A stretch of 64,000 nt of DNA from the NCBI GenBank assembly GCA_016188355.1, contig JACPHY010000016.1, positions 2,345 to 66,344 on the forward strand. Direction: 5' to 3'. The position numbers and the translations under genes were made by a program. Positions 12,277-43,900 of this stretch are shown here, one piece after another (position 1 is the stretch's first letter; every line of letters starts with the position of its first letter). A model generated the notes under the pieces. The model searched no databases and was not told where the DNA came from. It was given only the letters and a program-made list of their open reading frames with translations. This stretch comes from Candidatus Uhrbacteria bacterium. GTDB lineage: Bacteria > Patescibacteriota > Patescibacteriia > JACPHY01.

Positions 12277-12335
12277 ATGCGCCGCGCAGACGTGGTGCAG
12301 GCAATCAGCAGGAACAAGAAGGAGGATATCTAGTC

Positions 12336-24840: not shown

Positions 24841-24997
24841 AGGCGAAGGGGCGATGGATTATCGTAGGACCGTTGCGGTGTTCGGCCCTGTGCATCGGCG
24901 AGATATGCACAGCACCGTAGCGGTTCGTACGGTTAGGAGAAATAGTATATCACGCGCAAGTGGTGATTTGCTGTGCATTGCGCATGCTACACTGCGA

Positions 24998-27995: not shown

Positions 27996-28192
27996 TGGCG
28001 TATCTATCAGAAAAATAAGCGATTTTGTACATGGTGGCGGTGCTTCATGGGTAGCGATGCTACGGAGTGCTCACGTGAACGGGTGATGCGGGGCATCGTC
28101 TTTTCGGGTGAGCATTCAACGATCGTTGATTCACAATGTATCAATTACTGTAACTGCTCGTGGGTGTTGCTCACGAGGAGAGGGGAGGGTAC

Positions 28193-29095
28193 ATGCGAGA
28201 TCAGTTCGCGGTCGCGGGCGGCTCCATCGCCGGTCGCGACCACACGCGCGCGGGCAGAAATAATCATGATGCGTTCTCCTGGATTCAAGATCCGGACTGG
28301 ACTATCGCATTCGTCGCGGATGGCTGTGGTGGTGCGGATGACAAAGTGCCGATGGATGTACGCGTCCGGCACGGCGCGGGTCCGCATAGTGAGGTGGGCG
28401 CGAAGCTTGGGGTGCGTCTGGTTGCAGAGTCCGTCCGCCGAAGTTTGCGGCGATTCGCCGAGCATCCGATTGCAGCGACCGGCGTGTTGCCGGAGCACGA
28501 TTCCTTCTGGGAGCGGATTCGTCAGGATGTGCTCGCCGGTCTCCGTGTATTGGCGCTCCAGATGGGCGACAGCCTTTCCGAGGTGGTGAACGAGTATTTC
28601 CTCTTCACCCTCGTTGGAGCGGTGATCACGAAATGGGGAACGTCGATCGTTTCATTGGGCGATGGCATTTATGGGTGCAACGGCAACGTACGCGTCCTGG
28701 GTCCATATCCCGATAATGAGCCACCGTACCTCGCGTACGGTCTCGTGCCGACCTCCCTCGCAAATACAGATCCGCGGCTCCTGAAATTCGTGGTGCATGA
28801 AATGCTATCGACGGATCAGGTGCATTCGATTCTCCTGGGTACCGACGGCGGCAAGGATCTGCAGGAAGCCGCTGGCCGTTGTATTCCTGGCAGTGCAGAG
28901 CTCGTCGGTCCTTTGGATCAATTCTGGATGAACGATCTCTACTTCCGAAATCCGGACGCGCTGCGCCGTCGACTGGCGGTGATCAACCGTGATCGGAGTG
29001 TTCAGGGTGACGGTGGCGGTACGCAGAATGCTGCCGGCCTACTCCCGGACGATACGACGCTCATTGCCATCCGGAGACGATCCGGAGGTGCGTGA
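28193..29095 (+). CDS. PP2C-family Ser/Thr protein phosphatase
   Basis: GGGGAGGG RBS before MRDQFAVAGGS. PP2C motifs DGCGG, LGDGIYGCNGN, DDTTLIAIRR. Stop overlaps the kinase ATG (TGATG). Confidence 0.8.
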   Translation: MRDQFAVAGGSIAGRDHTRAGRNNHDAFSWIQDPDWTIAFVADGCGGADDKVPMDVRVRHGAGPHSEVGAKLGVRLVAESVRRSLRRFAEHPIAATGVLPEHDSFWERIRQDVLAGLRVLALQMGDSLSEVVNEYFLFTLVGAVITKWGTSIVSLGDGIYGCNGNVRVLGPYPDNEPPYLAYGLVPTSLANTDPRLLKFVVHEMLSTDQVHSILLGTDGGKDLQEAAGRCIPGSAELVGPLDQFWMNDLYFRNPDALRRRLAVINRDRSVQGDGGGTQNAAGLLPDDTTLIAIRRRSGGA

Positions 29096-30990
29096 TGGAC
29101 GTGTTCATCGATGGAAAGAAGTTTCGTGTTTCGCCGAAGCAGGCGATTGGAAAGGGCGGAGAGGCGGACGTCTACAATCTCGGTGATGGGCGGGCGCTGA
29201 AGATCTTCAAGCCGCCGACGCATCCCGATTATGCGGACATACCGGATCGCGGAGAGCGCGAACGGGAAATGTGTGGCGCGCGAGATCGGATCGCGCTCCA
29301 TCAGGAGAAGCTCCCCGCGTTTCCCAGAGACCTCCCGGATCACGTCGTGGTGCCCGCGGATCTGGCCATGGATGCAGGAGGATCATCAATCGTTGGGTAC
29401 GCGATGCCGCTCCTCACCGGTGCGGAAACGTTCTGGAAATACGGGCATCGCGGAGAGCGACCGGCGGGTATCACGAACGAGCACGTGCAGAGCATCCTTC
29501 GGAATCTCCATCGGACCGTGCAGGGATGCCATGCGAAGCAGGTGGTCATTGGCGACTTCAACGACCTCAATGTGTTGGTGGTCGGGGAGGAGCCCTACCT
29601 CATCGATGTGGACAGCTTCCAGTTCGGGAAGTATCTCTGCCGGGCATTCACGGTGCGCTTTGTGGATCCGCTCCGGTGTGATCCGCATGCATCGAGTTTG
29701 CTCCTGGCGCAGCCGCACACTCCCGATTCGGACTGGTACGCGTTCACTGTGATGCTCATGCGGAGCCTGCTCTTCGTGGAGCCGTACGGTGGGGTGTTCA
29801 AACCGAAGGATCGCACGAAGTTGGTGCCTCATGATGCGCGGCCTCAGCATCGTATTACGATCTTCCATCCCGAGGTGATTTGTCCCAAGGTGGCCATTCC
29901 GTATGGAAGACTTCCAGACGATCTCCTCCATCACCTGCAGCAGGTGTTCGAGAAGGATCTCCGTGGGGTGTTCCCGATGCAGCTGCTCGAGAGCATGCGT
30001 TGGACGACCTGCGCGCAGTGCCAGACGGAGCATGCGCGAGCGCTTTGTCCGAATTGCCAGCATGCGGCTCCGGCGGCGATTCGGGAGGTGACCGTGATTC
30101 GTGGCCAGGTGACCGCGACGCGGATTTTCCGCACGCATGGTCGAATCTGTCAGGCGGCGATGCAGGATGGTGCGTTGTGTTGGTTGTATCATGAGGACCA
30201 CGCATTTCGTCGGGAAGATGGCGCGTTGGTGATTTCCGGCGGCATGGATCCCAAGTTTCGCTACCGTCTCCAGGGTCGCGCGACGCTCATCGCCCGCGAT
30301 GATCAGCTCGCGACGATTTCGCCGCATGCGGGAACGCAACGACGGACCGTCGAACAATTCCAGGGTCGATTGCCCGTCTATGATACGAACGCGCGCCACG
30401 CCTACTGGCTGGAGGGTGGCACGATCTATCGGGACGGCGATCTCGCTCAGGAACGTATCGGCGATGTGTTGGCGGGACAGACGTTGTTTTGGGTGGGGCC
30501 GGCATTCGGGTTCGGGTTCTATCGAGCCGGCGAGCTCAATGTGGCGTTCGTCTTTGATGCAGAGCGTCGCGGTATCAATGATGCGGTATCATTGCCACGT
30601 TTCCACGGTCAGATCCTCGATGTCGCGACGACGTTCTCCAATGAGCGCTGCTGGTTCTTCGTTGCATACGAACACGGAGGGAAGACGGTGCATCGGTGCA
30701 CGGTGATCCGTCCGGATGGCGGCATCGAAGCAACCATGGAGGCGACGGCTGGGGAACCGGCGTGGTCGTGGCTCGGAACGATCCGTGGTCACGCGGCAAC
30801 GGGAAAGTTCCTCCTCGCGGCAACGGATGACGGTATCGTCCGCGTCGAAGTGCATCAGGGGCAGCTTGCGGCGACGAAGTCCTTTCCGGATACGGAGCCG
30901 TTTGTGGGGGCCGGTGACTTGCTCTTCGCGGGAAAAGACGGTCTCTACGTCGTGAGTCGCAGCGAGATCACGCGTCTCCAGATTCGCTAA
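29095..30990 (+). CDS. Ser/Thr protein-kinase-like protein with internal Zn ribbon (CAQC...CPNC) and C-terminal beta-rich domain
   Basis: Gly-rich loop IGKGGEADVY, lysine ALKIF, catalytic-loop-like VIGDFNDLNVLV, DFG-like IDVDSF. Confidence 0.7.
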   Translation: MDVFIDGKKFRVSPKQAIGKGGEADVYNLGDGRALKIFKPPTHPDYADIPDRGEREREMCGARDRIALHQEKLPAFPRDLPDHVVVPADLAMDAGGSSIVGYAMPLLTGAETFWKYGHRGERPAGITNEHVQSILRNLHRTVQGCHAKQVVIGDFNDLNVLVVGEEPYLIDVDSFQFGKYLCRAFTVRFVDPLRCDPHASSLLLAQPHTPDSDWYAFTVMLMRSLLFVEPYGGVFKPKDRTKLVPHDARPQHRITIFHPEVICPKVAIPYGRLPDDLLHHLQQVFEKDLRGVFPMQLLESMRWTTCAQCQTEHARALCPNCQHAAPAAIREVTVIRGQVTATRIFRTHGRICQAAMQDGALCWLYHEDHAFRREDGALVISGGMDPKFRYRLQGRATLIARDDQLATISPHAGTQRRTVEQFQGRLPVYDTNARHAYWLEGGTIYRDGDLAQERIGDVLAGQTLFWVGPAFGFGFYRAGELNVAFVFDAERRGINDAVSLPRFHGQILDVATTFSNERCWFFVAYEHGGKTVHRCTVIRPDGGIEATMEATAGEPAWSWLGTIRGHAATGKFLLAATDDGIVRVEVHQGQLAATKSFPDTEPFVGAGDLLFAGKDGLYVVSRSEITRLQIR

Positions 30991-31011
30991 TTTGTGTAGA
31001 TGTTTGTGGGG

Positions 31012-31054
31012 AATTGCGGCAGCCCACAGCATCGGTATCTCCACTGCCGCAATT
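31012..31054. promoter_or_regulatory. 11-bp perfect inverted repeat aattgcggcag-N21-ctgccgcaatt directly upstream of the nicotinamidase-like gene
   Basis: Read directly; lies between the kinase stop (30990) and the AAGGAG RBS of the next gene. Confidence 0.3.
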
Positions 31055-31079
31055 ACGAGACAAGAAGAAGGAGTTCGCC

Positions 31080-32243
31080 ATGGGTAAGGCTCTTCCGTTC
31101 CCGAAATTCTACGATCCGCACAACGTCAGCGACTGGAATTACGCGCCGGATCTCCAGGAGGTGCTCCTGGAGGCGCAGGAATACGTACGGCGCAACGACA
31201 TCAAGCCGGCGTCCACCGCGAAGGTGCGGATCGGCGTTCTCGGCATCGACAACCAGAAGGACTTCTGCTATCCGCCGGACGCGCGGGTCGTCCGTGGCAA
31301 GCCGCGCGGCGGCACGCTCTACGTGGCGGGCCGGAGCGGCACTGGCGCGATCGATGACAGCCGGCGGTACACCGAGTTCCTCTACCGGAACGCGGCACAC
31401 ATCACGAACATCTGGGACACGATGGACACGCACTTCCTATATCAGTGCTTCTTCCCGACGTTCTGGCTCCTCGAGAACGGTCAGCATCCCAATCCCCATA
31501 CGCTGATCGACCTCAATGCGCACGAGCAGCTCGTGAACCTCGATCTCGCGGGCAAGGAGATCGGCGCGGTGCGGGTGAATCCCGCCATCATGTCGTGGCT
31601 CCTCCCCGGGGTGTCGCCGAGCGCGGCGTTCACCTGGGCGACGAAGCAGATGGAATTCTATGCGCGTCAGCTGAAGCTGCCGAAGGGGCAGTACTCGAAG
31701 ACCCCGTACACGCTGTATCTTTGGCCGTTCCACTGCATCCTCGGCGGTGACGGGCACGCGCTCGTGGGGAGCATCCAGGAGGCACGGATGTTCGTCGCGG
31801 CGGCGCGCGGCATCCAGTCGTATCGCGAGGTGAAGGGAGGGAACGAGTGGTCCGAGAACTACGGCATCATCAGTGCCGAAGTACTCGAACGCCATGACGG
31901 CAAGGGGCAGATCGCGCAGAAGAACGTCGCGTTCCTGAAGAAGCTCCTCGAGCATGACATCATCATCATCGGCGGTCAGGCGGCGAGCCACTGCGTGAAG
32001 AGCTCGATCGAGCAGATCCTCGACGGTATCGTCGCGCAGGATCCGAAGCTCGCGAAGAAGGTGTACATCCTCGAGGACTGCATGTCCGCAGTCACCGTGC
32101 CCGACGGGAAGGGCGGATTCGCGGCGGACTTCACGCCGCAGGCGGAAGCGGCGATCCTCGAGTTCAAGAAGGCGGGCATGCACGTCGTCCAGTCGACGGA
32201 TTCCATCGAGAGCTGGCCGGGCGTCGGATCGCTCGCGGCCTAA
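31080..32243 (+). CDS. Enlarged isochorismatase-family cysteine hydrolase, nicotinamidase (PncA)-like
   Basis: GIDNQKDFCYPP resembles the PncA DVQNDFC motif; catalytic-Cys segment IIIGGQAASHCVKSS. About 390 aa versus about 190 for canonical PncA. Confidence 0.6.
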   Translation: MGKALPFPKFYDPHNVSDWNYAPDLQEVLLEAQEYVRRNDIKPASTAKVRIGVLGIDNQKDFCYPPDARVVRGKPRGGTLYVAGRSGTGAIDDSRRYTEFLYRNAAHITNIWDTMDTHFLYQCFFPTFWLLENGQHPNPHTLIDLNAHEQLVNLDLAGKEIGAVRVNPAIMSWLLPGVSPSAAFTWATKQMEFYARQLKLPKGQYSKTPYTLYLWPFHCILGGDGHALVGSIQEARMFVAAARGIQSYREVKGGNEWSENYGIISAEVLERHDGKGQIAQKNVAFLKKLLEHDIIIIGGQAASHCVKSSIEQILDGIVAQDPKLAKKVYILEDCMSAVTVPDGKGGFAADFTPQAEAAILEFKKAGMHVVQSTDSIESWPGVGSLAA

Positions 32244-32326
32244 TCCACTTCGGAGGGGTCGCCGGTGGTGCTTTCGGGTGCCATTGGCGATCCTTTCGAA
32301 CCACCAAAACCAAAGGAGTATCTACC

Positions 32327-33127
32327 GTGGCGAATACGGGTTCTTCCCAGAACGTCAGTCAGCTCTTCCAGGCCGCGCAGCAGGAGGGCGACCTCTCGGC
32401 GCAGTCCGCGGCGATTCTGCTCGCGCCGGATATGGGTCTCCAGATTCAGGCCGGGCTCGGCGCGCAGATCGATGATGTCCAGGCGAGCGAGGTGTTTCTC
32501 GTGGCGCTGATGCCGGATGACTCTGGGTCGATCGCGTCTGCGAACAATGAGCAGACCGTTCGTGACGGACACAACCTCGTGATCGAGGCCCTGCGGGATT
32601 CGAAGCAGGGCGATGGCATCCGGGCGCACTGCCGATATCTGAACGGCAAAGTGCTCTACGCGTTCGGGTCGCTCGACGCGGCCGTGAAGATGGATGGTCG
32701 AAACTACCGCGCGGACCAGGGGACGCCGCTCTACGATCAGACGGTGGTGCTCCTCGGGACGGTACTCGCGGAGGCGAAGGCGTTCGAGGATGCGGGCGTT
32801 CCGGCACGGACCGCGACCCTCATCATCACCGATGGCGCCGATCTCCACTCGAGGAGGAAGGCGAAGGATGTGAAGGCGATCGTCGACGATATGCTCCGCA
32901 AGGAAATGCATATCGTCGCGGCCATGGGCATCGATGACGGTGGCGGCACGGACTTCCGCAGGGTGTTCCGCGACATGGGCATCCGCGACGAGTGGATCCT
33001 CACGCCGGGCAACTCGGCGAGCGAGATTCGTCGGGCATTCTCGGTGTTCTCGCGGTCCGCGGTGCGTGCGTCGCAGTCCGCGGGCAGCTTCAGTCAGACG
33101 GCGGCCGGCGGTTTCGGCGCTCCGTAG
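32327..33127 (+). CDS. Small vWA-domain protein (TerY-like) with intact MIDAS
   Basis: DDSGS MIDAS, downstream Thr and TDGADL motif; GTG start with AAGGAG RBS. Confidence 0.7.
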   Translation: MANTGSSQNVSQLFQAAQQEGDLSAQSAAILLAPDMGLQIQAGLGAQIDDVQASEVFLVALMPDDSGSIASANNEQTVRDGHNLVIEALRDSKQGDGIRAHCRYLNGKVLYAFGSLDAAVKMDGRNYRADQGTPLYDQTVVLLGTVLAEAKAFEDAGVPARTATLIITDGADLHSRRKAKDVKAIVDDMLRKEMHIVAAMGIDDGGGTDFRRVFRDMGIRDEWILTPGNSASEIRRAFSVFSRSAVRASQSAGSFSQTAAGGFGAP

Positions 33128-33185
33128 CTGATCATCGGTACGCAGTTCCTTCTGACCGGTCCCACCATGCGTGGGGCCGGTCGTT

Positions 33186-33376
33186 CTTTTCACAAGGGAC
33201 TTCGTCCTCGGTGCGACCCCTGCCTCGCCACGGCGCAGGAGCCGGGCAAAGCCCTTCTCCTCCTGCTTGGGCTCGGCATGCCCTCTTTTCACAAGGGACC
33301 TCGTCCTCGGTGCGACCCCTGCCTTGCCATGGCGCAGGAGCCGGGCAAAGCCCTTCTCCTCCTGCTTGGGCTCGGC
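33186..33376. repeat. Two tandem 99-bp direct repeats (about 95% identical), each containing a nested stem-loop gcaggag-cc-gggc-aaa-gccc-ttct-ctcctgc
   Basis: Copies start at 33186 and 33285 with identical cores. Located between the vWA stop and a shared terminator; a third diverged copy is at 836-900. Confidence 0.7.
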
Positions 33377-33378
33377 GG

Positions 33379-33420
33379 TGAAAAAAAGAACACCGGCTCT
33401 GGGGAAGCCCAGAGCCGGTC
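33379..33420 (-). terminator. Intrinsic terminator for the convergent large vWA gene (11-bp stem ccggctctggg/cccagagccgg plus U7 on minus strand)
   Basis: Perfect stem with gaag loop. tgttcttttttt follows on the minus strand; T-rich flank also on the plus side (possibly bidirectional). Confidence 0.5.
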
Positions 33421-33446
33421 TTATTCATCCGTCGTTCACTGAAGTC

Positions 33447-35012
33447 TCAGGTGTCGGTGCCGCGATTGCCGCCGCCGAGGAGTTTCCCGAGGCGCTCGAT
33501 CACACTCGGCCGGCGTCGCAGTTCGGCGGTATTGCTCACTCGGAGCCGATCGCCGTCGATGATGATGTGGTTCGGATCCACGCCCGCCTGCCGCACTGCC
33601 TCGAAGTCTTTTATTTTGAGATCTCCGAGGATCGTCATGTCATCGAATGCCTGCTGCTGCTGGGCGGACGGCATGCCGAGCGACGTGTAGTCGGACCGAC
33701 CGCCGCCATAGCCCGACATGTACGTCCGTCCTGCATCCCGGAGGTGTCCCGCCTGCTCCGCGAATCGCTGTCGGTCTCCGAGGTCACTGCCGATCCGTTC
33801 GAGTTCGGCAACTCGTTCCTTTGCTTCCGGGAGATCGATGCGCTTCAGCTCCTCTCGAATGGCGAGGATGCGCTGCGCTGCGTCCGTGAATCGACTATCC
33901 CGTGCGTACCGCCACGCATCCTGAATGGCGATGCCGGCCGCGATCTGGAGTCGATCGAGCTCGATCTGCGGATCCGGTCGTTGCTCGGCGTCACTGGGTG
34001 CCACGTATCGGAATCGCGCCTCGCTCGAGATGTCGAACGGCGTGCCGTCCACCCGTTGACCGGTCACTCGAACCGTCGCTGCGGACGTCGCACGCGGGAA
34101 GACTTTGTCGACGGACGGAATCTGGAGTTCCGCCGTCACGGATGCCGGCTTTCCGTCGTACAGGTTGCCGATGGCCAGCGTGACGTCGTTGCCGTTTTGT
34201 CCCGCTGCAATGATCGGCACGTTCTCCAGGACGACGACGTGGAACGGATCATGTGCGGTGATGCGGACGCGCACGTTCGTCGCGGTGAGACTGCGGAGGA
34301 ACCCGAGCTCCATCGCGAACGCGTGGATGAGCGCATCTGCTCCCTCTGCGTGGTACGAGACGCCGCCACTCAGCGTTGCGATTGCCTCGAGCAGTTCCGG
34401 GTCGTATCCATCGGCACCGGCCGCATGACCGACTGGACCGAATCCGAACGTCGCGATGGGCACATCACTCATCGCGGCTCGTCGGCGTTCCCGAATTGCC
34501 GCGCAGATGTTGTCGTGCCCCGTAATGCCGACGGTCGGCACGCCATCCGTGAAGAGGATGATGCGTTGCGTGCGGAGCTGGTCTTCGGGCTGTGTCTCCT
34601 CCGCGAGCATCGTGATCGCTTCGCCTACACCGTCGACGAGGTTCGTGCTCCCATGCGCACCGATGCGTCGGATGCTCTGCTCGAGCATGGCACGCTTCGT
34701 CCGCAGGGTACCGATCGGCGTGAGCACGTGCGCGCTGTCCGAGAATGCGACGAGCCCGACGCGATCGTGGTCATCGAGCTGGAGCAGGAATCGGAACATG
34801 GCCTCTCGCGCGGCGTCGCGTTTGGTGGGACTACCGTGGCGATGATCCGTGGCCTCGCACATGGAGGATGATGTATCCGCGACGAGGACGATGTCCTTCG
34901 GCATCGGCTGCATCGCATGCGGCATGGGTCCGGCGACGCGCACGACGAGGTGTGTGGGTTCCGGATGGCGATGGTTGATTTTCTGTCGGGTCAATCGGAC
35001 GCTGACGTCCAT
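33447..35012 (-). CDS. Large vWA-domain protein with long C-terminal helical extension
   Basis: MIDAS DTSSSM, then T and LFTDG. GAGGAG RBS 7 nt before the internal ATG (MDVSVRLTRQ), so the start is placed at 35012, not the ORF-track 35078. Confidence 0.7.
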   Translation of the reverse strand: MDVSVRLTRQKINHRHPEPTHLVVRVAGPMPHAMQPMPKDIVLVADTSSSMCEATDHRHGSPTKRDAAREAMFRFLLQLDDHDRVGLVAFSDSAHVLTPIGTLRTKRAMLEQSIRRIGAHGSTNLVDGVGEAITMLAEETQPEDQLRTQRIILFTDGVPTVGITGHDNICAAIRERRRAAMSDVPIATFGFGPVGHAAGADGYDPELLEAIATLSGGVSYHAEGADALIHAFAMELGFLRSLTATNVRVRITAHDPFHVVVLENVPIIAAGQNGNDVTLAIGNLYDGKPASVTAELQIPSVDKVFPRATSAATVRVTGQRVDGTPFDISSEARFRYVAPSDAEQRPDPQIELDRLQIAAGIAIQDAWRYARDSRFTDAAQRILAIREELKRIDLPEAKERVAELERIGSDLGDRQRFAEQAGHLRDAGRTYMSGYGGGRSDYTSLGMPSAQQQQAFDDMTILGDLKIKDFEAVRQAGVDPNHIIIDGDRLRVSNTAELRRRPSVIERLGKLLGGGNRGTDT

Positions 35013-35347
35013 GGCAATTCTCCTCTGCTGGTTGGGTTGCGGATAGTCGATGCGGAGTGAGGGATGTGTCACTCCCAAATCGACCGAGATCCCATCCCCA
35101 CACCCTCAGCCATACGCAGCGGCGGTCATCCCAATTCCGGAGATCCGGAAGCGGACGACCCAACGGTGTCGTACGGTGGAGCGATGTGCGTGAACTCCCC
35201 GATTGGGAAGGAGCACCAGGACGATACCATAGACGATCCGTCATGTCCAGGGCTTGACGCGGTGCGGAAGGATGGGTATACCAAGGCTGGGAGTCCTCCC
35301 AAGGAATTGCTGTCGGTGTCCCATACAGGGGCGCAGAGAGGAGCATC

Positions 35348-35833
35348 ATGCGATTCGTAGTGATGACCGGGAGCTTCTTGCCGACCATACTGGTAATCGT
35401 ATGTATCGGCGTGGTGCTGTTTCGCTGGTGGCGCGCGGCGCGTCATCGATTGCCGACGATCGATGGTCCGGCGGTGCGGGAGCGGCAGTCGGTGCCATGG
35501 CAGTGTGACGAGCAGCCATCCGCGCCAACGTTGGTAGTGGTAATCCCCGCGCCAGAGGCGCCTCGCACTGCGGAGCTATCTCTCGTTCCGGCGTTCCCGC
35601 CGCTCCTGTTGCCGATTCCCTCGCGAGCGCCGTCCATGCCACAGGGTCATGCGCTGCGACTCGCCGAACGGGCGATTGCGCGCGCGGATCGTCGCCGTCG
35701 TACTCGGGGTGATCTCCGGCTGGTGCGCCGAAGCCGGAATCGTCCTCGCCTGTTGCGTGAGCGCTATGCATCGGAAGTGCCCACGGAGGATTTGGTGCCG
35801 CTCGCGCCGCCTGCATGGGAGCAGGAGCGATGA
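35348..35833 (+). CDS. Hypothetical single-TM protein, Pro/Arg-rich
   Basis: GAGGAG RBS; N-terminal TM helix. Confidence 0.5.
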   Translation: MRFVVMTGSFLPTILVIVCIGVVLFRWWRAARHRLPTIDGPAVRERQSVPWQCDEQPSAPTLVVVIPAPEAPRTAELSLVPAFPPLLLPIPSRAPSMPQGHALRLAERAIARADRRRRTRGDLRLVRRSRNRPRLLRERYASEVPTEDLVPLAPPAWEQER

Positions 35834-36070
35834 GGTATACGGGAGCCGCATGTTGCGGCTCCCGTTGTTCGTGGGTGAGCATTCGGCTCTCCTGGGCCAA
35901 TTCTGTGGTAGAGGTTGACAACTGAGCGGATTTGTGGTTGTCTGGGAGTGCATCAAAGGCGATGGGTCGGCGGAGCAGGTCCGTCGAGCCGCTCGTTCAT
36001 AATTGAGGTGGTTTTCCGTACAAAAACGATCCGCGCATGTGCGCGAGATCCGGGAAGGAAGGAGATCGTG

Positions 36071-38554
36071 ATGCAGAATCACCAAGGTGGGCGCGCGTAC
36101 CAACGCGTGCTGCTCATGATGCTCGGGCTCGCCGCGTTCCTCGCGGGGGTATCGACGCCGGCAATGGCGCAGGACTGCGATGCGGTGGTGGTGGACTCGG
36201 CGCGTTTGTTCGGTGGCGATACCGCGGCCGTGGAATCGGCTGCGCGTGCGTTGACGCAGCGCGGTGCGACCGTTCGCGTGCGCACGGTGCCGACGTTCGG
36301 CGGTGCCGGCAGTCTCGATCACTACGAGGCGGCCATCGAGCGGCAGTGCCCCTCGTGGCAAGCGCCTGGCGGAGGCACGCGGAATTCGCTTCTCGTGTTC
36401 ATGATCGCAGTCAAGGAGCGCGCGTCCGGCATGTACAGCGGCACGCAGTGGAAGCACATCGTTGGTCCGCACTGGGCGACGATTCAAGCGCAAGAAATGA
36501 ATCCGCGATTCCGCGATCGTGATTTCGCGGGTGGGTTTGCTGCCGGCATGCAGGCGGTCGATCGTCTCATCGGACAATCGCAAGTCGGAGTCGCGGCAGC
36601 GCCAACGACCAGCGCGCCGGTGCAGGTACATGTGCAAGTTCCGGCTGCTGCACCCGCGGGTCCGCCGCCCGATTACTCTGGGTTTGTTCGATTCCTCGGC
36701 TGGCTGCTCGCCATCGCGGTGCTCGGCGTCATCGTGTACGTCGTGCTCGCCGGGCGGGCGCGTCGCAAGCGAGAGGAGGAGGAGCGACAGACCGCCCAAT
36801 CTGCGGCGAGCCGCCAGAAGAAAGCGGTTGCCGCGCGGATCGGAGAGCTGACGGACAGCATGCCGCTCCTCAAGGCACGCGTCGGTGTCCTGGGTCAGAA
36901 GATCGATATCGAGCAAAAGGCCGCGTTCGATCGTCGATATCAGGAGGCGGATGTGTTGTTCGGAGGTGCGAGCACGGCGTTCGCCGATCTCTCGAGCAGC
37001 GCGGCGGATCCGGATCGTCCGGGACGGACGAAGCAGGAGTATGAGGACATCGCTCGGGAGTACCAGAGTGTCCTCAAGAAGCTCGATCAGGTCGCGGATG
37101 CGATGGCGAAGCTCAAGCAGGATTGCGAGCGTACCGATCGGGAGGCGAGTGAGCTGCCGCAGGCGATCGCGGTCGCGGAATCCGCCATCCAGGCGTATGC
37201 GGAGGCGGAGCGTACGCGATCCGGTGAGGGCTGGAAGACGGGCGCGGCGAGCGGGAAGGCGCAGGAAGCGGCCACGGAGTTTGCGAGGGCGAAGACCGAA
37301 CAGCAGGCGAAGCGTTTCGCGAAGGCGCTCGTCGCAGCGAAGGCGGCGACTGCAGCCGCGCGAGATGCGCAGCGGCTCGTGGACGAGCTACCGGCACGAC
37401 GCGAAACGCTCGCGGCGACGCTCACGAAGCTCGCGCAGCGGCTCACGGCGACCGAGGAGCGCGTCACGACCGACGCGAAGTCGGCGTTTGGGCGCATCCA
37501 GCAAGAGTTCGCGCGATCGTCCTGGCAGGATATCGCGGGGAACGGCAGTGAGGCCGAACGGCGCATCGATCAGGCGCTCGAAGCGCTCGAGGCGGGGAAC
37601 GCGGCGATCGCGCTCGAGGAGCAGCGGTGGTCGGATGCGGAAGCGCGCATCGCCGAGGCGCAGAAGCTCCTTGGCGAGGCGGACGGGCTGATCAAGTCCA
37701 TCACCGCGCTCGAGCAGCGTTTGCGTGAGGCCAAGGCGGCGGCACCCAATGAGATCAATGCGGCCGCGAAGGATCTCACGCGGGCGAAGGAGTATGAGCG
37801 GACGCACGATGACGACATCGACGATGCGATCAAGAAGGATATCCGCGTGGCGGATACGAAGCTCGCTGCGGCGCGTGAGGCACTCACGCTAGCGCAGCCG
37901 GACTATCTCGCCGTGGTCGACATGGCGCGTGCGGCGAACAACGCGGCGGATCAGATTCTTGCGTTCTGCCGGAACCAGCACGAAGCCGCCGAGCGGCAGC
38001 GCGCGAAGGCGGTGCAATCGGTTCGAGATGCAGAAGGCGCGATCGGGGATGCGCGACGGTACATCGACAACCATCGTTCGGATGTCGGTCGCTCCGCCCG
38101 TGATACGCTCCAGAATGCCGAGGTCGAGTACGAGCGTGCAAAAGTCGCGAGCGACCTCGCGTCCCGCATCCAGCATGCGGAACGCGCGGAGAGCGAGGCG
38201 AAGAGTGCGCTCACGCGCGCGAAGCGGGATTTTCGCGACGCTGAGGAGGAGCGCGAGCGAGCGGCAGAGCAGGTACGCGAGGCACAGCGTCGGGCGCAGC
38301 GTGCCGCTGAACGTGCCGCGGAAGATGCGGTGGATACGTTCGCGCGTGGTGCAGCGTGGGGAACGTATACGTCCCAACGTGCGCACCACTCCGCTCCGAC
38401 GCGCCGCGAGGACAGTGGTCCGTCGTTCCCGAGTTTCGGTGGCTCGTCGACCTTCGGAAACAGTGACAGCGACCGTTCCGGAGGTTCCTCGACCTGGGAG
38501 AGTTCCTCCCCGAGCAGTGACAGCGATCGTTCCGGAGGTTCCTCGACCTGGTAG
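36071..38554 (+). CDS. TPM-domain (TLP18.3/Psb32/MOLO-1-type) membrane protein with about 550-aa cytoplasmic coiled coil and C-terminal Ser-rich 18-aa tandem repeat
   Basis: AAGGAG RBS before MQNHQGG. Signal/TM, TPM-like VVVDSARLF...VRVRTVPTFGG...SLLVFMIAVKER, second TM, long E/A/R-rich helix, then SDSDRSGGSSTW twice. Confidence 0.7.
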   Translation: MQNHQGGRAYQRVLLMMLGLAAFLAGVSTPAMAQDCDAVVVDSARLFGGDTAAVESAARALTQRGATVRVRTVPTFGGAGSLDHYEAAIERQCPSWQAPGGGTRNSLLVFMIAVKERASGMYSGTQWKHIVGPHWATIQAQEMNPRFRDRDFAGGFAAGMQAVDRLIGQSQVGVAAAPTTSAPVQVHVQVPAAAPAGPPPDYSGFVRFLGWLLAIAVLGVIVYVVLAGRARRKREEEERQTAQSAASRQKKAVAARIGELTDSMPLLKARVGVLGQKIDIEQKAAFDRRYQEADVLFGGASTAFADLSSSAADPDRPGRTKQEYEDIAREYQSVLKKLDQVADAMAKLKQDCERTDREASELPQAIAVAESAIQAYAEAERTRSGEGWKTGAASGKAQEAATEFARAKTEQQAKRFAKALVAAKAATAAARDAQRLVDELPARRETLAATLTKLAQRLTATEERVTTDAKSAFGRIQQEFARSSWQDIAGNGSEAERRIDQALEALEAGNAAIALEEQRWSDAEARIAEAQKLLGEADGLIKSITALEQRLREAKAAAPNEINAAAKDLTRAKEYERTHDDDIDDAIKKDIRVADTKLAAAREALTLAQPDYLAVVDMARAANNAADQILAFCRNQHEAAERQRAKAVQSVRDAEGAIGDARRYIDNHRSDVGRSARDTLQNAEVEYERAKVASDLASRIQHAERAESEAKSALTRAKRDFRDAEEERERAAEQVREAQRRAQRAAERAAEDAVDTFARGAAWGTYTSQRAHHSAPTRREDSGPSFPSFGGSSTFGNSDSDRSGGSSTWESSSPSSDSDRSGGSSTW
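38462..38551. repeat. Two 54-nt in-frame direct repeats encoding SDSDRSGGSSTWESSSPS at the 3' end of the TPM gene
   Basis: agtgacagcga(c/t)cgttccggaggttcctcgacctgg present twice, 54 nt apart. Confidence 0.6.
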
Positions 38555-38629
38555 GGCGGGGGAGGGAGGACGCGGGGTCCTCACACCACAAGCAACATCG
38601 GCAAAGAAAGAAGAGAGAGGTAGTTACTC

Positions 38630-39352
38630 ATGGCAAGTTTCTTCGACAAGGTACGTACCGGAGTGCTCGCGATTGCACACCGAGCGGCCGACGCCGTCAT
38701 CGACCTCAATTCTGTCGAAGCGGTCAAGGTGCACATCCGCGACCTCGAGGAGGCGCAGGAAGACCTCCAGGGAGCTGCGGCGGAGGCGACGGGCGGCGTG
38801 CGGACGCTGCGCCGCGAGCGCGACACCACGCAGGCGAAGGTCACGGAGCTCGATGAAAGCATCGGCTTCATCCTCAGCGATGGCGACGACACGAACGACC
38901 ACCTCGCGGTCCCGCTCCAGGCGAGGCTCGACGGCCTCAAAGCCCAGCTCGCGGCCAAGGAAGACGAGATCGCGACCGCCGAGCAGGTCGCGCAGCAGAT
39001 GAACGAGGCGGCCTCGGCACTCCAGGCGAAGCTCACCTCCATGGTCGAGCGCGTGCGAGGTCTCGAGGCGCAGGAGCGAGCGGCGAAGGCGAAGGAGTCC
39101 GCGGCGAGCGCGGTCGCCCAGGCCGGAAAGATCGCAGCGGGCGCGGATGCGGTGTCGGTGGATGACATCTCGGCTCGGCTCCAGCGGCGAACCGATGTCG
39201 CGGACGAGAAGTTCAAGCGCGCCATGGGCGGCATCTCTGGGGGTCTCGAGCAGGACGTCGCGCTCGCGAAGGCGAAGGCGGCCATCGCGGCGCGCAAAGC
39301 GGCGCTCCAGAAGCCGAAGGAGGGCGACGCGCCGGCCGCCAAGGCGGGCTAG
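38630..39352 (+). CDS. PspA/IM30-family protein (phage-shock protein A / Vipp1 / LiaH-like)
   Basis: N-terminal amphipathic MASFFDKVRTGVLAI followed by a 230-aa heptad-rich helical protein, PspA-like length and organisation. Confidence 0.7.
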   Translation: MASFFDKVRTGVLAIAHRAADAVIDLNSVEAVKVHIRDLEEAQEDLQGAAAEATGGVRTLRRERDTTQAKVTELDESIGFILSDGDDTNDHLAVPLQARLDGLKAQLAAKEDEIATAEQVAQQMNEAASALQAKLTSMVERVRGLEAQERAAKAKESAASAVAQAGKIAAGADAVSVDDISARLQRRTDVADEKFKRAMGGISGGLEQDVALAKAKAAIAARKAALQKPKEGDAPAAKAG

Positions 39353-39374
39353 GCGCGCGGTAGGTGCGTATTCA

Positions 39375-39410
39375 GAGAGCTCCCGTTCAACGGGAGCTCT
39401 CATTCTTTTC
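39375..39410 (+). terminator. Intrinsic terminator after the PspA-like gene (11-bp stem gagagctcccg/cgggagctctc plus attcttttc)
   Basis: Perfect stem with ttcaa loop and downstream U-tract. Confidence 0.6.
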
Positions 39411-39420
39411 GGGACTCGTG

Positions 39421-39448
39421 TTGACGAGCATGGCAGATATGTTACGGT
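39421..39448 (+). promoter_or_regulatory. Putative promoter TTGACG-N16-TACGGT for paralog A
   Basis: Immediately after the terminator; GGAGGG RBS follows. Confidence 0.4.
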
Positions 39449-39478
39449 TCGGTTGGTTCATTTCCTGAAGGAGGGATC

Positions 39479-40366
39479 ATGCGAAAACGAGCGAATGGGT
39501 CGGCAGTCCCCGCGCAGGTGCGGCCCCACGGCGACACCAAAGATGGTCTGACGCCGGACGAGGCGGCCGCATGGGATGCGTGCCTCGGCGTGCATGTGGA
39601 TGATGTGCTGGTCTGGGGGTGGTTCATAGCCTGCACCCTGCTCCGGATTCCTCCGGAGCGTCGATATGCGCACATCGCGCACATGGTTCGGTACTACCCG
39701 TTTGTTCCGAGCACTGCGCCGGACCAGTTCACCGGAATTCCGTCGTTTGATGTGCATCGGGTGCGTCTCGCGCATTTCCAAATGTGCCACGTGGAGACTC
39801 CGTTAGCGCGCGACCTCATGCAGACCATGCAGCGACATGAAGATGCGGCGCCGGTCACCCCCGAGATGATCGCATCGTGCGTCCTCCGGCACCTCGATCG
39901 GTGCGAGCCGTCCGAACTTGCGGCGCTCTTCGTCCTCCTCTGCCGAGAGCCGGGATGCACGCCGCTCGGCCATTCGGTGGCATTGGGGAAGATGTGGGAA
40001 GTCCCACCCGCGGCCGTATGGGAAGTGCTCGTCGCCGAGCGCGATGTGGTCTGTGCAATCCTGGAGAACCTCTCGTGCCTTCGGTGTCAGTACCACGCCA
40101 CGCCATTCGGGGTTGCGCGCATCGTACTTGCGCAGGTGGAACGGATCGCGAATCCCGAGCATCGTGCAATCGTCCTCGGGCATTGTCTCGAGCATTGGTC
40201 CGAAACGCTCGAAGCGCGTGCGCGGCAACGGATGTGCGCAGCGATCGCCCATGCGGCACGGGAGGGGAATCTCGATGTGGCGGTGGTGATGATGCCGGAT
40301 GCGCAGGATGATGCAGCGGCGGATGACCACGATGAAGGCGATGCGCGGGGGCGATTTCTGCATTAG
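39479..40366 (+). CDS. Hypothetical Cys-rich protein, paralog A (shared motif H[IV]AH..R.YP[FY]VP)
   Basis: 295 aa. Clear similarity to the next gene (TP.E...W...LG..V...VVWG...R..H.AH..R.YP.VP); no family recognised. Confidence 0.55.
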   Translation: MRKRANGSAVPAQVRPHGDTKDGLTPDEAAAWDACLGVHVDDVLVWGWFIACTLLRIPPERRYAHIAHMVRYYPFVPSTAPDQFTGIPSFDVHRVRLAHFQMCHVETPLARDLMQTMQRHEDAAPVTPEMIASCVLRHLDRCEPSELAALFVLLCREPGCTPLGHSVALGKMWEVPPAAVWEVLVAERDVVCAILENLSCLRCQYHATPFGVARIVLAQVERIANPEHRAIVLGHCLEHWSETLEARARQRMCAAIAHAAREGNLDVAVVMMPDAQDDAAADDHDEGDARGRFLH

Positions 40367-40388
40367 TCCGTAGTCGATGCATCGTGTG

Positions 40389-40425
40389 CGCACCGGCCCT
40401 CAGGGCCGGTGCGATTCCTTTTGTG
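40389..40425 (+). terminator. Intrinsic terminator after paralog A (11-bp stem cgcaccggccc/gggccggtgcg plus ttccttttgt)
   Basis: Perfect stem, tca loop, T-rich tail. Confidence 0.5.
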
Positions 40426-40431
40426 GGAATA

Positions 40432-40460
40432 TTGACAACTGTCACTATTCCTGGTATGGT
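40432..40460 (+). promoter_or_regulatory. Putative promoter TTGACA-N17-TATGGT for paralog B
   Basis: Hexamers read directly; AAGGAGGG RBS before the ATG at 40511. Confidence 0.5.
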
Positions 40461-40510
40461 GGTGCTGCCCTTTTGTGTGCGATGCCTCATGCCAGCAGGA
40501 AGGAGGGCAC

Positions 40511-41269
40511 ATGTCGTTCGTTCTCACCCCCGCGGAGCAGCGCGACTGGGAATTGCGTCTCGGATGGCGCGTACAGGAGTCGGTTGTTTGGGGAGTGCGC
40601 GTTGTGGAGTACTTGTACGAAGAGGTGGCGGAAGATCGACGCGTGCTGCATGTGGCGCATGCGCTCCGCGTCTACCCGTATGTGCCGCGTATCGAGCGGG
40701 GCGTATTCGCGGAACGACGCATCGGTCCGCTTGCGCTTGCCGAATGTGAGCCTGCGTGTCGGCGGCTTCTCGATGCGTTGCTCGCGACCGCACGGGAGCA
40801 GCGATGGGGAGCGGATGAATTTGCGGCGCAGTGCGTGGAGCGGCTGTCTCCACTGGATACCACCGCCCGCGCCTATGTCTTCGGGAATTTGTTTCACGAG
40901 CGGGGGTGCTGCCCCTTCACGAGCAACGTGACGCTAGGAATCACGTTATCGGAAGGGGATCACTGGAGTGTTCTCGTGCGTTATCGCGACATCATCGCGC
41001 CGATCGTGCGGCGACTGCGTCACTTCGCATGCTGCATGACTGCGGATGAGTTGGCGGGTGCTTTTGACCAGTGCGCGCAAATAACCGCTGCTGCGGAGCG
41101 CCGAGTCGTACTCGTGCATCTCGCGCTGCTCATCATTTCGCATCGCGACCAGATGCGAGATGCCGCGCGCATGGTCGTTGCGGCGCTACAGGGGTCCGGT
41201 GGTGACGAGGAAGGCGCAGATGGCGACGGCCTCGTGTTTCCGGGTTCGCGGCCAGGACCTGCATCCTGA
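40511..41269 (+). CDS. Hypothetical Cys-rich protein, paralog B
   Basis: Start at the internal Met after a strong RBS; paralogous to 39479-40366. Confidence 0.55.
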   Translation: MSFVLTPAEQRDWELRLGWRVQESVVWGVRVVEYLYEEVAEDRRVLHVAHALRVYPYVPRIERGVFAERRIGPLALAECEPACRRLLDALLATAREQRWGADEFAAQCVERLSPLDTTARAYVFGNLFHERGCCPFTSNVTLGITLSEGDHWSVLVRYRDIIAPIVRRLRHFACCMTADELAGAFDQCAQITAAAERRVVLVHLALLIISHRDQMRDAARMVVAALQGSGGDEEGADGDGLVFPGSRPGPAS

Positions 41270-41331
41270 GTTCGACGACGGCCGCTGTCCCTCGCGGATG
41301 GCGGCCGGTTCCTTTCCAAGGAGGTGATGTC

Positions 41332-42282
41332 GTGATGGAGGAAGTGCTGCGTGGGCAACCCATACGGGTGATCGGGTGCGTGGTATCGGCGCATGCGCAT
41401 GCACAGGTGCTTGCGGAGCGATTGCGCCGCATCTGGAATTCGGCGGATGCGTCGGGTTTGGGATGGGTAGATGGGGAATCGCCCAAGGAACTGGCCGCGG
41501 CAATGGCATCCGCGCAGTCCACCGCATCCATTCCCGTTTCGTGCATTGATGCGGTCTTCGTGGTGGGTGGCGATGGATTTCTCATGGAGACATACCACGC
41601 ATTCGATGGCACGGGTCTCCGGCCGCTCCTCATAGGATGGAATGCGGGGCATGTGGGATTTCTCATGAATGATGCGCCGCACGCTGATGATGCGCTGCAG
41701 GTGCAGCTGGCGAATTTCCGTAACGGCGTCTACACCACGGAACTCGCGTATCCGGTGTGTGCGCAGGTGCAGCTCCGGGATGGAACGGAGCGCACCATTC
41801 GGGCGTTCAATGAGATTACGCTCCGCGCATCCGGTCGCCAGGCGGTCCGACTGCATCGGTGGATCAATGGAGCGGATTTGGGAGTATTTGGCGGTGGCGG
41901 ATTCATTGTGGCGACCCCGCAGGGATCCACGGCGTTTGCAGGAGATGCGGGTGGTCCGCTAGTGGATCCCGCCGTTCCATCGCTCGTGCTGGTCCCAATG
42001 ACGACGCATCGTGCGCGTATTTTCGCGCAACTTCATAACGCGCTGGTGCTCTCGCCCCATTCGTCCATCCGTGTGGATGTGCTGGAACGGGACAAGCGAC
42101 CGATCGCGGTGGAAACGGAAACGGAGCAGATCACGGACGTGGATCGCGTCCTGATTACGAGCGCGTATCGGCACGGCCCATCGCAGGCGATCGCATTGGG
42201 GTATGCGTATGCCCCGGACGGTCGACGCTTTCCCGCGCGAGTCGCCAAGAAATTCATCGGGAGGATTCGGGAGCGGCACTAA
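41332..42282 (+). CDS. nadK: NAD kinase
   Basis: VVGGDGFLM GGDG motif and GGGFIVATPQGSTAFAGDAGGP; AAGGAGG RBS. Confidence 0.85.
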   Translation: MMEEVLRGQPIRVIGCVVSAHAHAQVLAERLRRIWNSADASGLGWVDGESPKELAAAMASAQSTASIPVSCIDAVFVVGGDGFLMETYHAFDGTGLRPLLIGWNAGHVGFLMNDAPHADDALQVQLANFRNGVYTTELAYPVCAQVQLRDGTERTIRAFNEITLRASGRQAVRLHRWINGADLGVFGGGGFIVATPQGSTAFAGDAGGPLVDPAVPSLVLVPMTTHRARIFAQLHNALVLSPHSSIRVDVLERDKRPIAVETETEQITDVDRVLITSAYRHGPSQAIALGYAYAPDGRRFPARVAKKFIGRIRERH

Positions 42283-42312
42283 GGTATCCGTGGCGGTTCG
42301 CCGCAACGCAGT

Positions 42313-42346
42313 GGAGTCATTCCTTTGGAGTGACTCCGTTCTTTTT
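42313..42346 (+). terminator. Intrinsic terminator after nadK (ggagtca...tgactcc plus ttcttttt)
   Basis: 7-8 bp stem and U-run directly after the stop. Confidence 0.5.
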
Positions 42347-42361
42347 GATGTAGTTGACGAT

Positions 42362-42393
42362 AGTTAGTGTCAAATGCACAATAATTGTATACC
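42362..42393. promoter_or_regulatory. Candidate operator/promoter upstream of pncB containing agttagtgtcaa and cacaataattgtat
   Basis: Shares the TTAGTGT and ATAATT words with the 25771-25879 sites; preceded by TTGACG at 42354. Confidence 0.25.
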
Positions 42394-42601
42394 GGTTCCG
42401 GAATCGCTTTGATTGGGCATTTGGACATCCATTTGACGCTTTGGTGATTTCATGATAGGGTTTTGGGTCTGTAGAGGGAAATTGAGGTTCCGTGCGCTGG
42501 GCGCGCGCGGGTGCTCAGTGGCTCTCGATGGCTCTTTTGGATCGCAGGCAACAGACGGAAGCGCTGCGTGCAATGGCGCGTCAGCAGAAAGGAGCTTGGG
42601 A

Positions 42602-43900
42602 ATGCAATTTCTTCGATCACCGCATCCGCTCTTACGGCAGTTCGTGGTGGATGGACCGATCATCGAATCGCTGCTCGATGTCGACTTCTACACCTTCACG
42701 ATGCAGGCGTACATTCGGAGGTACCATCCCGGGACCCATGTGCGCTTTGGGCTTCGGAATCGCACGAAGATTCCGCTCGGGCGTTCCATCCGGGAAGGGG
42801 AGCTCCGTGAGCAGCTGGATCATGTCCGCTCGCTCCGCGCGACGCGGTCCGAATGCCATTACCTTGCGGGTACGTTCGAATACGGCCGGCGCATGTTCGA
42901 CGATGCGTACATCGACTGGTTCGCAAACCTGCAGCTGCCCGAGTACGATCTCGAGTATCTTCCGGATGGCCACATCCGCCTCGAGTTCGCGGGGGACTGG
43001 GAGGCGGCGCTGCATTGGGAGACCATCGGCATGCCCATCCTGACGCAGCTCTACTTCAAGAGCCTACTCAAGAACATGATGACGATCGAGTGTGATGCGG
43101 TCGTTGCGGAGGGCATCCGGCGTCTCCATGAGAAGATACAGATGGTCCAGCAGCGCTGCGCATCGGGGCGACCGTTCTCCTTCGCGGAGTTCGGCACCCG
43201 GCGCCGCGCGTTTCGTGACTGGCAGCGCTACACGGATGCCATGTTCGGGGAGAGCTTGCCGGGTCAGTATCTCGGTACCTCCAATACGTTGAACGCCATG
43301 CTCCTCGGGCAGCAGCCCATGGGCACGAATGCGCACCAGCTCCAGATGGTGGCGGTGGCGCTCGCATCTTCCGGGAGCGATGAGGACATGCGTGCCGCAT
43401 CGCGACAGGTGTACGAACGGTGGTGGGAGATGTTTGGGCATGGACTCTCAATTGCACTGCCGGATACGTACGGAACGCCTGCGGGTCTCGAAGACCTCGG
43501 TGCATCGGGGGCGGGGTACTGGAAGGGTACGCGTCAGGATTCGGGATCGCCTGAGCGGGACACTGACCGGAAGATCGCATGGTACCTATCGCACGACATT
43601 GATCCTCGGGAGAAGCTGCTCTTGTACTCCGATGGGCTCACCTTTCCGCGCGCGTTCGCAATCGACGACTACCGCGCCGGCGCAATCAAGAAATCGTTCG
43701 CGCTCGGGACGAATGCGACGAATGACTTCCCGGTTCCGTCCGCGCTCTCCATCGTCGTGAAGCCGCTCCGTGCGAACGTGTTCGGATGCGTGAAGCTCTC
43801 TGACAACCCCGCGAAGGCGCAGGGCGATGCCGAGCTCATCCAGCGATACTGTCGCGTCTTCCGGTACCAGGAGGGCGAACGGACAGAGTGCGTGTATTGA
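42602..43900 (+). CDS. pncB: Nicotinate phosphoribosyltransferase
   Basis: AAAGGAG RBS before MQFLRS. Motifs DVDFYTFTMQ, EFGTRR and LGTSN typical of PncB. Confidence 0.85.
   Translation: MQFLRSPHPLLRQFVVDGPIIESLLDVDFYTFTMQAYIRRYHPGTHVRFGLRNRTKIPLGRSIREGELREQLDHVRSLRATRSECHYLAGTFEYGRRMFDDAYIDWFANLQLPEYDLEYLPDGHIRLEFAGDWEAALHWETIGMPILTQLYFKSLLKNMMTIECDAVVAEGIRRLHEKIQMVQQRCASGRPFSFAEFGTRRRAFRDWQRYTDAMFGESLPGQYLGTSNTLNAMLLGQQPMGTNAHQLQMVAVALASSGSDEDMRAASRQVYERWWEMFGHGLSIALPDTYGTPAGLEDLGASGAGYWKGTRQDSGSPERDTDRKIAWYLSHDIDPREKLLLYSDGLTFPRAFAIDDYRAGAIKKSFALGTNATNDFPVPSALSIVVKPLRANVFGCVKLSDNPAKAQGDAELIQRYCRVFRYQEGERTECVY

Follow-up and report, generated by a model that had tools for sequence, protein, structure and literature searches.

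YdjH, a small protein encoded in the pspA operon of Bacillus subtilis, is the closest described counterpart of the protein analysed here, a TPM-domain protein with a long helical rod (hereafter the TPM-rod protein) that is encoded directly upstream of a PspA/IM30 homologue in a Candidatus Uhrbacteria bacterium (assembly GCA_016188355.1, contig JACPHY010000016.1), a member of the Candidate Phyla Radiation (CPR). The whole stretch of DNA analysed, called the window below, is 64,000 nucleotides long with a G+C content of ~60%, and the TPM-rod/pspA region lies on its + strand, as do all the features described between 35348 and 39401.

Ravi et al. 2024 (PMC11237479) described the association of TPM proteins with PspA and mentioned variants having "a long coiled coil"; the supplement of that paper gives the architecture string, a signal peptide followed by a TPM domain and a transmembrane (TM) helix. 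YdjH has this architecture, with one TM helix, and a Gly/Ser-rich cytoplasmic tail ending in an aromatic residue, and the window protein shares all of these features. YdjH binds PspA in a two-hybrid assay, and deletion of ydjH abolishes the foci of both PspA and YdjI in B. subtilis (PMC8581546). A phosphatase or nucleotidase activity of TPM domains is disputed even among characterised members (PMC11237479). Unlike YdjH, the window protein has a ~530-aa rod of five predicted repeats between its TM helix and its tail; the gene order is reversed relative to pspA-ydjGHI, the TPM gene coming first and pspA second; and the PspA of this CPR host belongs to a divergent subfamily that is often below Pfam detection.

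A second counterpart is EzrA, the "bacterial spectrin", whose membrane-anchored cytoplasmic domain of ~60 kDa consists of five linear triple-helix repeats (PDB 4uxv/4uy3) and which was identified as a polymerisation inhibitor (PMC4243239). EzrA regulates a cytoskeletal-type polymer, and the TPM-rod protein is strikingly similar to it in size, membrane anchoring and number of triple-helix repeats (about five are predicted here). In contrast to EzrA, with which it has no sequence relationship, it carries an extracytoplasmic TPM domain before the TM helix, and its genomic partner is PspA rather than FtsZ. The classical Psp (PspF-PspABC) and Lia (LiaIH) systems also rely on a PspA/IM30 effector recruited by a dedicated membrane protein, but no pspB, pspC, pspF or liaI/F gene adjoins the window pair, where the anchor would be the TPM protein. 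Finally, YgcG/TLP18.3/Psb32-type proteins have the TPM fold and an extracytoplasmic (lumenal) location in common with the window protein, but they do without a long repeat rod and, as a rule, have no link to PspA. We found no paper on PspA in Patescibacteria, nor one on a functional link between TPM and LemA. The TPM-PspA link was known already, and what the present analysis adds is a predicted five-repeat, spectrin/EzrA-like rod for which Pfam has no model, and a large family of two-gene cassettes.

A two-gene operon for the TPM-rod protein and PspA

The open reading frame (ORF) of the TPM-rod protein spans 35915-38554, with its true start at the ATG at 36071, preceded by the ribosome-binding site GGAAGGAGA. 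The gene (36071-38554) encodes a product of 827 aa, in which a signal peptide and the TPM domain are followed by a single TM helix, the helical rod and a Ser/Gly tail. It is followed by pspA (38630-39352), which encodes a 240-aa PspA/IM30 (ESCRT-III-like) protein. Because the gap between them is 75 nt, a terminator scan found no terminator in it and a strong hairpin follows pspA, the two genes form a two-gene operon (36071-39352). The intrinsic terminator that closes it (39375-39401; -23.7 kcal/mol, z = -5.0) has a perfect stem of 12 bp, one more than the 11 bp of the initial annotation, with a 3-nt loop, and is followed by AUUCUUUUCG. The same gene order is seen on a Logan contig carrying the PspA sequence.

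Upstream of the operon, a block at 35903-35946 contains two inverted repeats, TTGGC...GCCAA (TTGGCTCTCCTGGGCCAA) and TTGACAAC-N-GTTGTC, which are conserved in an alignment with the closest relative of the window (locus L002). It is a possible promoter/operator of the operon, judging from its sequence, and a scan with the sigma-70 consensus made no call there. An Rfam search of 30000-43000 found no family.

Predicted architecture of the two proteins

The TPM-rod protein starts with a hydrophobic segment (aa 9-33) that looks like part of a cleavable signal peptide. This peptide (aa 1-33, 36071-36169), delimited by eye from hydropathy and the -3/-1 rule, has a basic n-region before the hydrophobic core and would be cleaved between AMA and QD; its pLDDT in the AlphaFold2 model is low. 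The TPM domain (aa 40-165, 36188-36565) matches PF04536 with 39.8 bits (cutoff 22.1; E 5e-10), and the same family is matched by 27 of 30 diverse family members. Its modelled fold was matched by Foldseek to PG_0361 (2kw7), BA41 (5anp), TLP18.3 (3pvh) and Psb32 (8c7i) with a TM-score (TMt) of 0.63-0.74, as well as to 4oa3 and to the TPM-like subunit of the CIII2CIV2 supercomplex of mycobacteria. In the alignment of 30 diverse relatives, Cys36 and Cys93 hardly vary, which would fit a disulfide in a domain outside the cytoplasm. A Pro/Ala-rich linker connects the TPM domain to the TM helix (aa ~205-228, 36683-36754; Kyte-Doolittle maximum 2.76), which in the model is covered by a helix that runs on beyond it (residues 209-275). 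Since the TM helix is followed by RARRKREEEER, the positive-inside rule places the rod in the cytoplasm, and the predicted topology thus has the TPM domain outside and everything past the TM helix inside. The TPM domain and the two hydrophobic segments flanking it had both been proposed in the initial annotation, and both were borne out.

At the other end of the protein, the Ser/Gly-rich tail (aa 759-827, 38345-38554) is predicted to be disordered (pLDDT <50) and contains two copies of (D)RSGGSS(T/K)W, the second of which ends in the C-terminal Trp. It carries SDSDRSGGSSTW twice, and the corresponding DNA is a 40-nt direct repeat (38461-38500 and 38515-38554) with a spacing of 54 nt, that is 18 codons, in agreement with the duplicated Ser-rich 18-mer noted earlier. 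The RSGGSS(T/K)W motif is kept in all nine close and all 30 diverse members. The C-terminus of YdjH, ...SRGSF as deduced from a cloning primer, resembles the RSGGSSTW of the window protein, and a Gly/Ser-aromatic tail is a candidate for an element shared by YdjH and the TPM-rod family.

The rod between TM helix and tail (aa 229-758, 36755-38344; ~58 kDa) consists of ~530 helical residues rich in Ala, Arg and Glu (22/11/11%). It had been described as ~550 residues of uninterrupted coiled coil; its helicity and composition fit this description, but the rod is split into 11 helices by conserved loops and shows an internal repeat. When its profile was compared with itself (hhalign), it matched at an offset of ~92 aa over 304 columns, with a probability of 94% and an E of 8.6e-8, and more weakly at double that offset. 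An alignment of nine relatives revealed the loop motifs SASDPDRxGRTxxEY, EGWKTG, GNGSEAE, YExxHDxDIDD and YIxxHxxDV (also YIxSHxxDV), and most of the loop residues, such as G490-N491-G492, Y575, D582, Y664 and H668, persist in the 30-member alignment at 22-46% identity. Given the ~92-aa self-match, the EGW, GNG, YExxH and YIxxH loops fall at equivalent positions of about five repeats within aa 255-740. In the AlphaFold2 model, where the pLDDT of the rod is mostly >90, the helices recur in the pattern long (55-65 aa), short (~20 aa) and short or long, and each repeat would be a long-short-long set of helices. Searched with Foldseek, the rod matched at the level of fold the cytoplasmic domain of EzrA (4uy3; TMt 0.61, probability 0.99, 197 columns), as well as designed three-helix bundles and, weakly, the alpha-actinin rod. 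The model suggests that the rod of this family is a spectrin/EzrA-like array of about five three-helix repeats rather than a plain coiled coil.

At the sequence level, no Pfam family covers the rod, either in the window protein or in the 30 diverse members. The EzrA family PF06160 was unmatched by the window protein and matched by one of the 30 members at E 0.0037, which is chance level, and the profile of the whole TPM-rod family, compared with the PDB sequences, gave coiled-coil noise only and no EzrA chain. Two further identities were rejected. Similarity to SMC proteins, as in the name "chromosome segregation ATPase-like", amounts to 16 bits against a cutoff of 567 and is confined to coiled-coil positions, with no match to the Pfam family SMC_N; and a duplicated PspA/ESCRT-III origin of the rod received an hhalign probability of 0.2%.

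The product of pspA matches PF04012 with 35.0 bits (cutoff 33.9) over profile positions 2-216 of 220. This Pfam family is present in 32 of 40 PspA homologues, and two members of the subfamily (L026 and L027) have no Pfam match at all. Because the protein had no sequence match to solved PspA/Vipp1 chains, its fold was tested with an AlphaFold model built from an alignment of 40 sequences. The model (pLDDT 82) has helices at residues 4-25, 29-82, 87-171, 177-200 and 208-226, which comprise the alpha1-alpha2/3 hairpin followed by alpha4 and alpha5. In a Foldseek search of the PDB, ranks 1-17 were all occupied by Vipp1 or PspA with full-length coverage (best E 1.4e-4). Superposition of the hairpin on PspA(1-144) of E. 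coli (4whe) gave a TMt of 0.79 and a root-mean-square deviation of 2.7 A. The predicted N-terminal helix (residues 4-25), which may correspond to the amphipathic membrane-binding helix alpha0, has a hydrophobic moment of 0.36-0.39, which is above the protein mean of 0.26 and is not the maximum. Hardly any variation is seen across the subfamily in the tip of the hairpin, LSDxDxxNDHLA, or in an SVD hinge. Judged by the Pfam match and the modelled fold, the protein is a genuine but divergent PspA/IM30, as the initial annotation had assigned it.

Family, conserved pairing and neighbouring genes

A word-index search for homologues of the TPM-rod protein returned only nine relatives, suggesting a small family restricted to Uhrbacteria. 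This picture was overturned by an exhaustive search with a hidden Markov model (HMM), which gave 2835 representative matches; 1545 have an E below 1e-10 and 608 one below 1e-30, and among the top 150 every sequence is 660-850 aa long and aligned end to end. A further homologue search with the diverse alignment added almost nothing new. Family members are found under the names "YgcG" (JGI) and "chromosome segregation ATPase-like [Parcubacteria]" (NCBI).

To count the pairing, loci were taken from contig look-ups and pattern scans, all their ORFs were scanned with HMMs of both proteins, and 18 non-redundant informative lineages were retained; the search for related loci with the rod alignment gave 10 genome loci and three metagenome loci. 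A PspA of the same subfamily is encoded directly downstream, on the same strand and after a gap of 54-275 bp, in 12 of the 18 lineages. A thirteenth (the P0132 locus) has a 236-aa ORF in the pspA position whose PspA identity is only putative. The pairing spans ~25-75% identity of the rod protein, and the other flanking genes differ by lineage (vWA, glutamate dehydrogenase, histidine kinases, ribosomal protein S16, methyltransferase and others). In the reverse direction, starting from PspA homologues, the TPM-rod gene was found immediately upstream in both of the two cases looked up. The TPM-rod family is represented in Uhrbacteria, in other Parcubacteria and in Kaiserbacteria.

Some loci show peculiarities of their own. 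Full-length family members also occur on contigs (L010, L012, L014, L015 and L016) with a G+C content of 63-68% that were binned as Gammaproteobacteria, Vicinamibacterales, Binatia, Dehalococcoidia and Herpetosiphonaceae; either the family reaches well beyond CPR or these contigs were mis-binned. In L026, one of the loci reached from the PspA side, the TPM-rod frame is broken by a single in-frame TAG at 3805-3807, with HMM positions 13-415 and 418-769 on either side, which could reflect a pseudogene, a sequencing error or read-through. PspC-domain genes are located within a few kb of the pair in two relatives (L027, at 8171-8557, and the P0132 locus), and one of these genes is fused to LiaI-LiaF-TM, an indication that the two kinds of PspA partner may coexist in some lineages.

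Two sets of neighbours had been counted as part of, or as support for, a Psp-like module in the window. The first is a 161-aa R/P-rich ORF (35348-35833) with one N-terminal TM segment (hydrophobic aa 1-32), for which nothing above cutoff was found in Pfam or NCBIfam. It is separated from the TPM-rod gene by a hairpin directly 3' of it (35840-35864; 10-bp core stem, 12 pairs in the minimum free energy structure, -27.4 kcal/mol, z = -4.9), which is kept in L002. The ORF is shared by the window and its closest relative (loci L001 and L002) and absent from all other loci bearing the pair; L002 is 54% identical to the window in this ORF, 75% in the rod protein and 91% in PspA. The 161-aa ORF is a lineage-specific neighbour outside the conserved module, and its inclusion in that module was not upheld. 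The second set is a flotillin-like gene at 12336 (626 aa; NCBIfam FloT E 2.8e-11, Pfam Band_7 below cutoff), which forms a YqiJ-flotillin pair (11575-14216) with a YqiJ_N (NfeD-like) gene just upstream, and a separate Band_7 gene (25965-26849, 294 aa). Both of these SPFH-type genes are real and lie ~22-23 and ~10 kb from the pair, but neither is a conserved neighbour, flotillin/SPFH genes having been found in the flank of no relative examined. Since the 161-aa ORF is lineage-specific and the SPFH genes are absent from the relatives' flanks, the conserved unit is exactly two genes, TPM-rod and pspA. The YqiJ-flotillin pair, the Band_7 gene and the PspA pair place three membrane-organisation modules within 64 kb of a small genome.

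The immediate neighbours of the pair in the window are a vWA gene, the 161-aa ORF and two genes without Pfam families. The latter, directly past the pspA terminator (39479-40366 and 40475-41269), are paralogues (28% identity, E 4e-16) without a Pfam or NCBIfam family, each with a hairpin of its own at or near its end (for example 40389-40413), and L002 has a single copy. On the other side, a cluster at 28160-35078 contains a PP2C phosphatase (28160-29095), a 632-aa protein (29092-30990) weakly matching the kinase region of lanthionine synthetase, a Pfam-less 409-aa gene, a gene for a 266-aa protein resembling von Willebrand factor A (vWA; 32327-33127, + strand), with a DxSxS seen by eye only that resembles a metal ion-dependent adhesion site, and, on the minus strand, a gene for a vWA protein of 543 aa (33447-35078). 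The cluster is reminiscent of signalling triads of the vWA/PP2C/kinase type. Between its last two genes, which are convergent, a 99-bp unit is repeated in tandem (33185-33376; 1.9 copies, 96% identical); Rfam gave no match to it, and a single unit folds like its shuffles (z = -1.0). The window also contains an NrtR-type Nudix/winged helix-turn-helix regulator and two NAD-kinase-like genes (24854-25729, 26853-27836 and 41332-42282). Genes for nicotinate phosphoribosyltransferase and NAD synthase follow in L002, and the Kaiserbacteria locus L017 carries an NrtR gene (4517-5269) upstream of the one for its TPM-rod protein. The nearness of TPM-rod loci to NAD metabolism genes may be coincidental.

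Possible role of the pair

By analogy with YdjH, the TPM-rod protein is probably a membrane receptor or scaffold that recruits and organises the PspA/IM30 polymer at the membrane, a role we favour with some reserve. The TPM domain would stand outside the cell, with the rod and the flexible, Trp-ended Gly/Ser tail inside. As proposed from the YdjH analogy, the rod protein would draw soluble PspA/IM30 polymer towards the membrane and arrange it there, with the five-repeat rod supplying an extended surface for binding or templating PspA, and the TPM domain might report the state of the extracytoplasmic face. The analysis itself shows the operon and the conserved pairing, the fold of PspA, and the domains, topology signals and repeats of the TPM-rod protein; physical interaction between rod and PspA, recruitment in preference to inhibition, sensing by the TPM domain and the arch geometry considered below are all what we infer. 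The role of anchor or scaffold appears the most likely because of the domain homology to the YdjH system and the conserved operon structure. In this respect the core of the initial annotation stands, namely a TPM protein in the membrane, its long helical part in the cytoplasm, that is co-transcribed with PspA and probably scaffolds it (synteny in 12 of 18 lineages, reverse look-ups in two of two, the YdjH precedent), while the upstream TM protein, the SPFH neighbours and the coiled-coil label do not.

Several observations weigh against a dedicated PspA scaffold. Six of the 18 lineages (L007/8, L015, L016, L017, L020 and L021) have no adjacent PspA, so that the rod protein can exist alone or be paired with a PspA encoded elsewhere. 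The rod proteins of these lineages are 36% (L015) or 25-31% (the other five) identical to that of the window. The module as first proposed implied a TPM protein that does not occur without PspA in relatives; this holds for the Uhrbacteria relatives, at 41-75% identity, and fails in these six lineages. Moreover, the genes for YdjG (zinc ribbons and a TM segment) and YdjI (Band-7 and a zinc ribbon) are absent beside the window pair, the Pfam score of the window PspA is just ~1 bit above the cutoff, and its sequence search against solved PspA/Vipp1 structures gave nothing but coiled-coil noise. The match to EzrA does not go beyond an analogy of fold (Foldseek E 1.2), and the global model has a pTM of 0.42. 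A 239-aa ORF downstream of the TPM-rod gene in L017 was considered as a hidden PspA and rejected (hhalign probability 0.3%, no similarity to the PspA of L022).

The scaffold role can be extended to a geometry like that of EzrA, in which the rod would arch back and re-contact the membrane via the Trp-terminated tail. The protein would then be a dedicated transmembrane adaptor for a bacterial ESCRT-III, an arch of five spectrin-type repeats tethered by the TM helix and the tail that templates or meters the assembly of PspA polymer at the inner face of the membrane according to the input of the TPM domain. We regard this extension as attractive but tentative and, in its full form, rather unlikely.

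Less probable still is that the TPM-rod protein acts as a negative regulator, sequestering PspA protomers or capping polymers until a signal from the TPM domain releases them, as EzrA restrains FtsZ. The synteny supports such a role equally well, EzrA, the closest structural analogue of the rod, inhibits polymerisation (PMC4243239), and five repeats with conserved loops could bind one protomer each; however, loss of the TPM partner in B. subtilis abolishes the membrane foci of PspA and does not increase them. The sequences alone do not separate inhibition from recruitment.

We give a similarly low probability to a shared transcript with separate roles, the TPM-rod protein being an assembly factor or nucleotide phosphatase of the Psb32/TLP18.3 type, or an EzrA-like cytoskeletal regulator, and PspA guarding the same membrane. 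TPM proteins do act in photosystem II repair and are part of the mycobacterial CIII2CIV2 supercomplex (fold matches 8c7i, 8ovc and 8hcr), and one third of the informative lineages are without an adjacent PspA. Yet the pairing outlasts complete turnover of the flanks over ~25-75% identity and is found in both reciprocal look-ups, the adjoining PspA comes from one specific divergent subfamily, and a purely extracytoplasmic enzyme would need no large conserved cytoplasmic rod. Functional independence is disfavoured because the synteny is reciprocal and independent of the flanks.

That the rod is a generic low-complexity coiled coil and the PspA assignment a compositional artefact of an Ala/Glu-rich helix is very improbable, for the weak SMC matches of both proteins (NCBIfam 16-22 bits against cutoffs >500) and the marginal PspA Pfam score that would speak for it are set against a register-specific 92-aa repeat, invariant loops (GNG, YxxxH, EGW), high-confidence helix breaks, a Pfam alignment over positions 2-216 of 220 and 17 top PDB fold matches that are all PspA/Vipp1 and span the whole protein, by which it is largely refuted.

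If the TPM-rod protein recruits and organises PspA, as we favour, the pair would represent a minimal set of an adaptor and an ESCRT-III-like protein, at a time when the targeting of PspA/IM30 to damaged membrane is known in few model systems. The adaptor is a large protein with a confident model, and defined targets for mutation are at hand in its repeats and invariant loops. The "long coiled coil" of Ravi et al. would be, at least in the TPM-rod family, a spectrin/EzrA-like repeat array. Should the protein indeed be a transmembrane adaptor for a bacterial ESCRT-III, it would found a second family of "bacterial spectrins", one that links a membrane-remodelling rather than a cytoskeletal polymer to the membrane, and this family would be widespread, with at least 600 sequence clusters, and kept in tiny CPR genomes. 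The retention of the family in the reduced genomes of Uhrbacteria and other Parcubacteria, bacteria not yet amenable to genetics, suggests that it is important for membrane maintenance.

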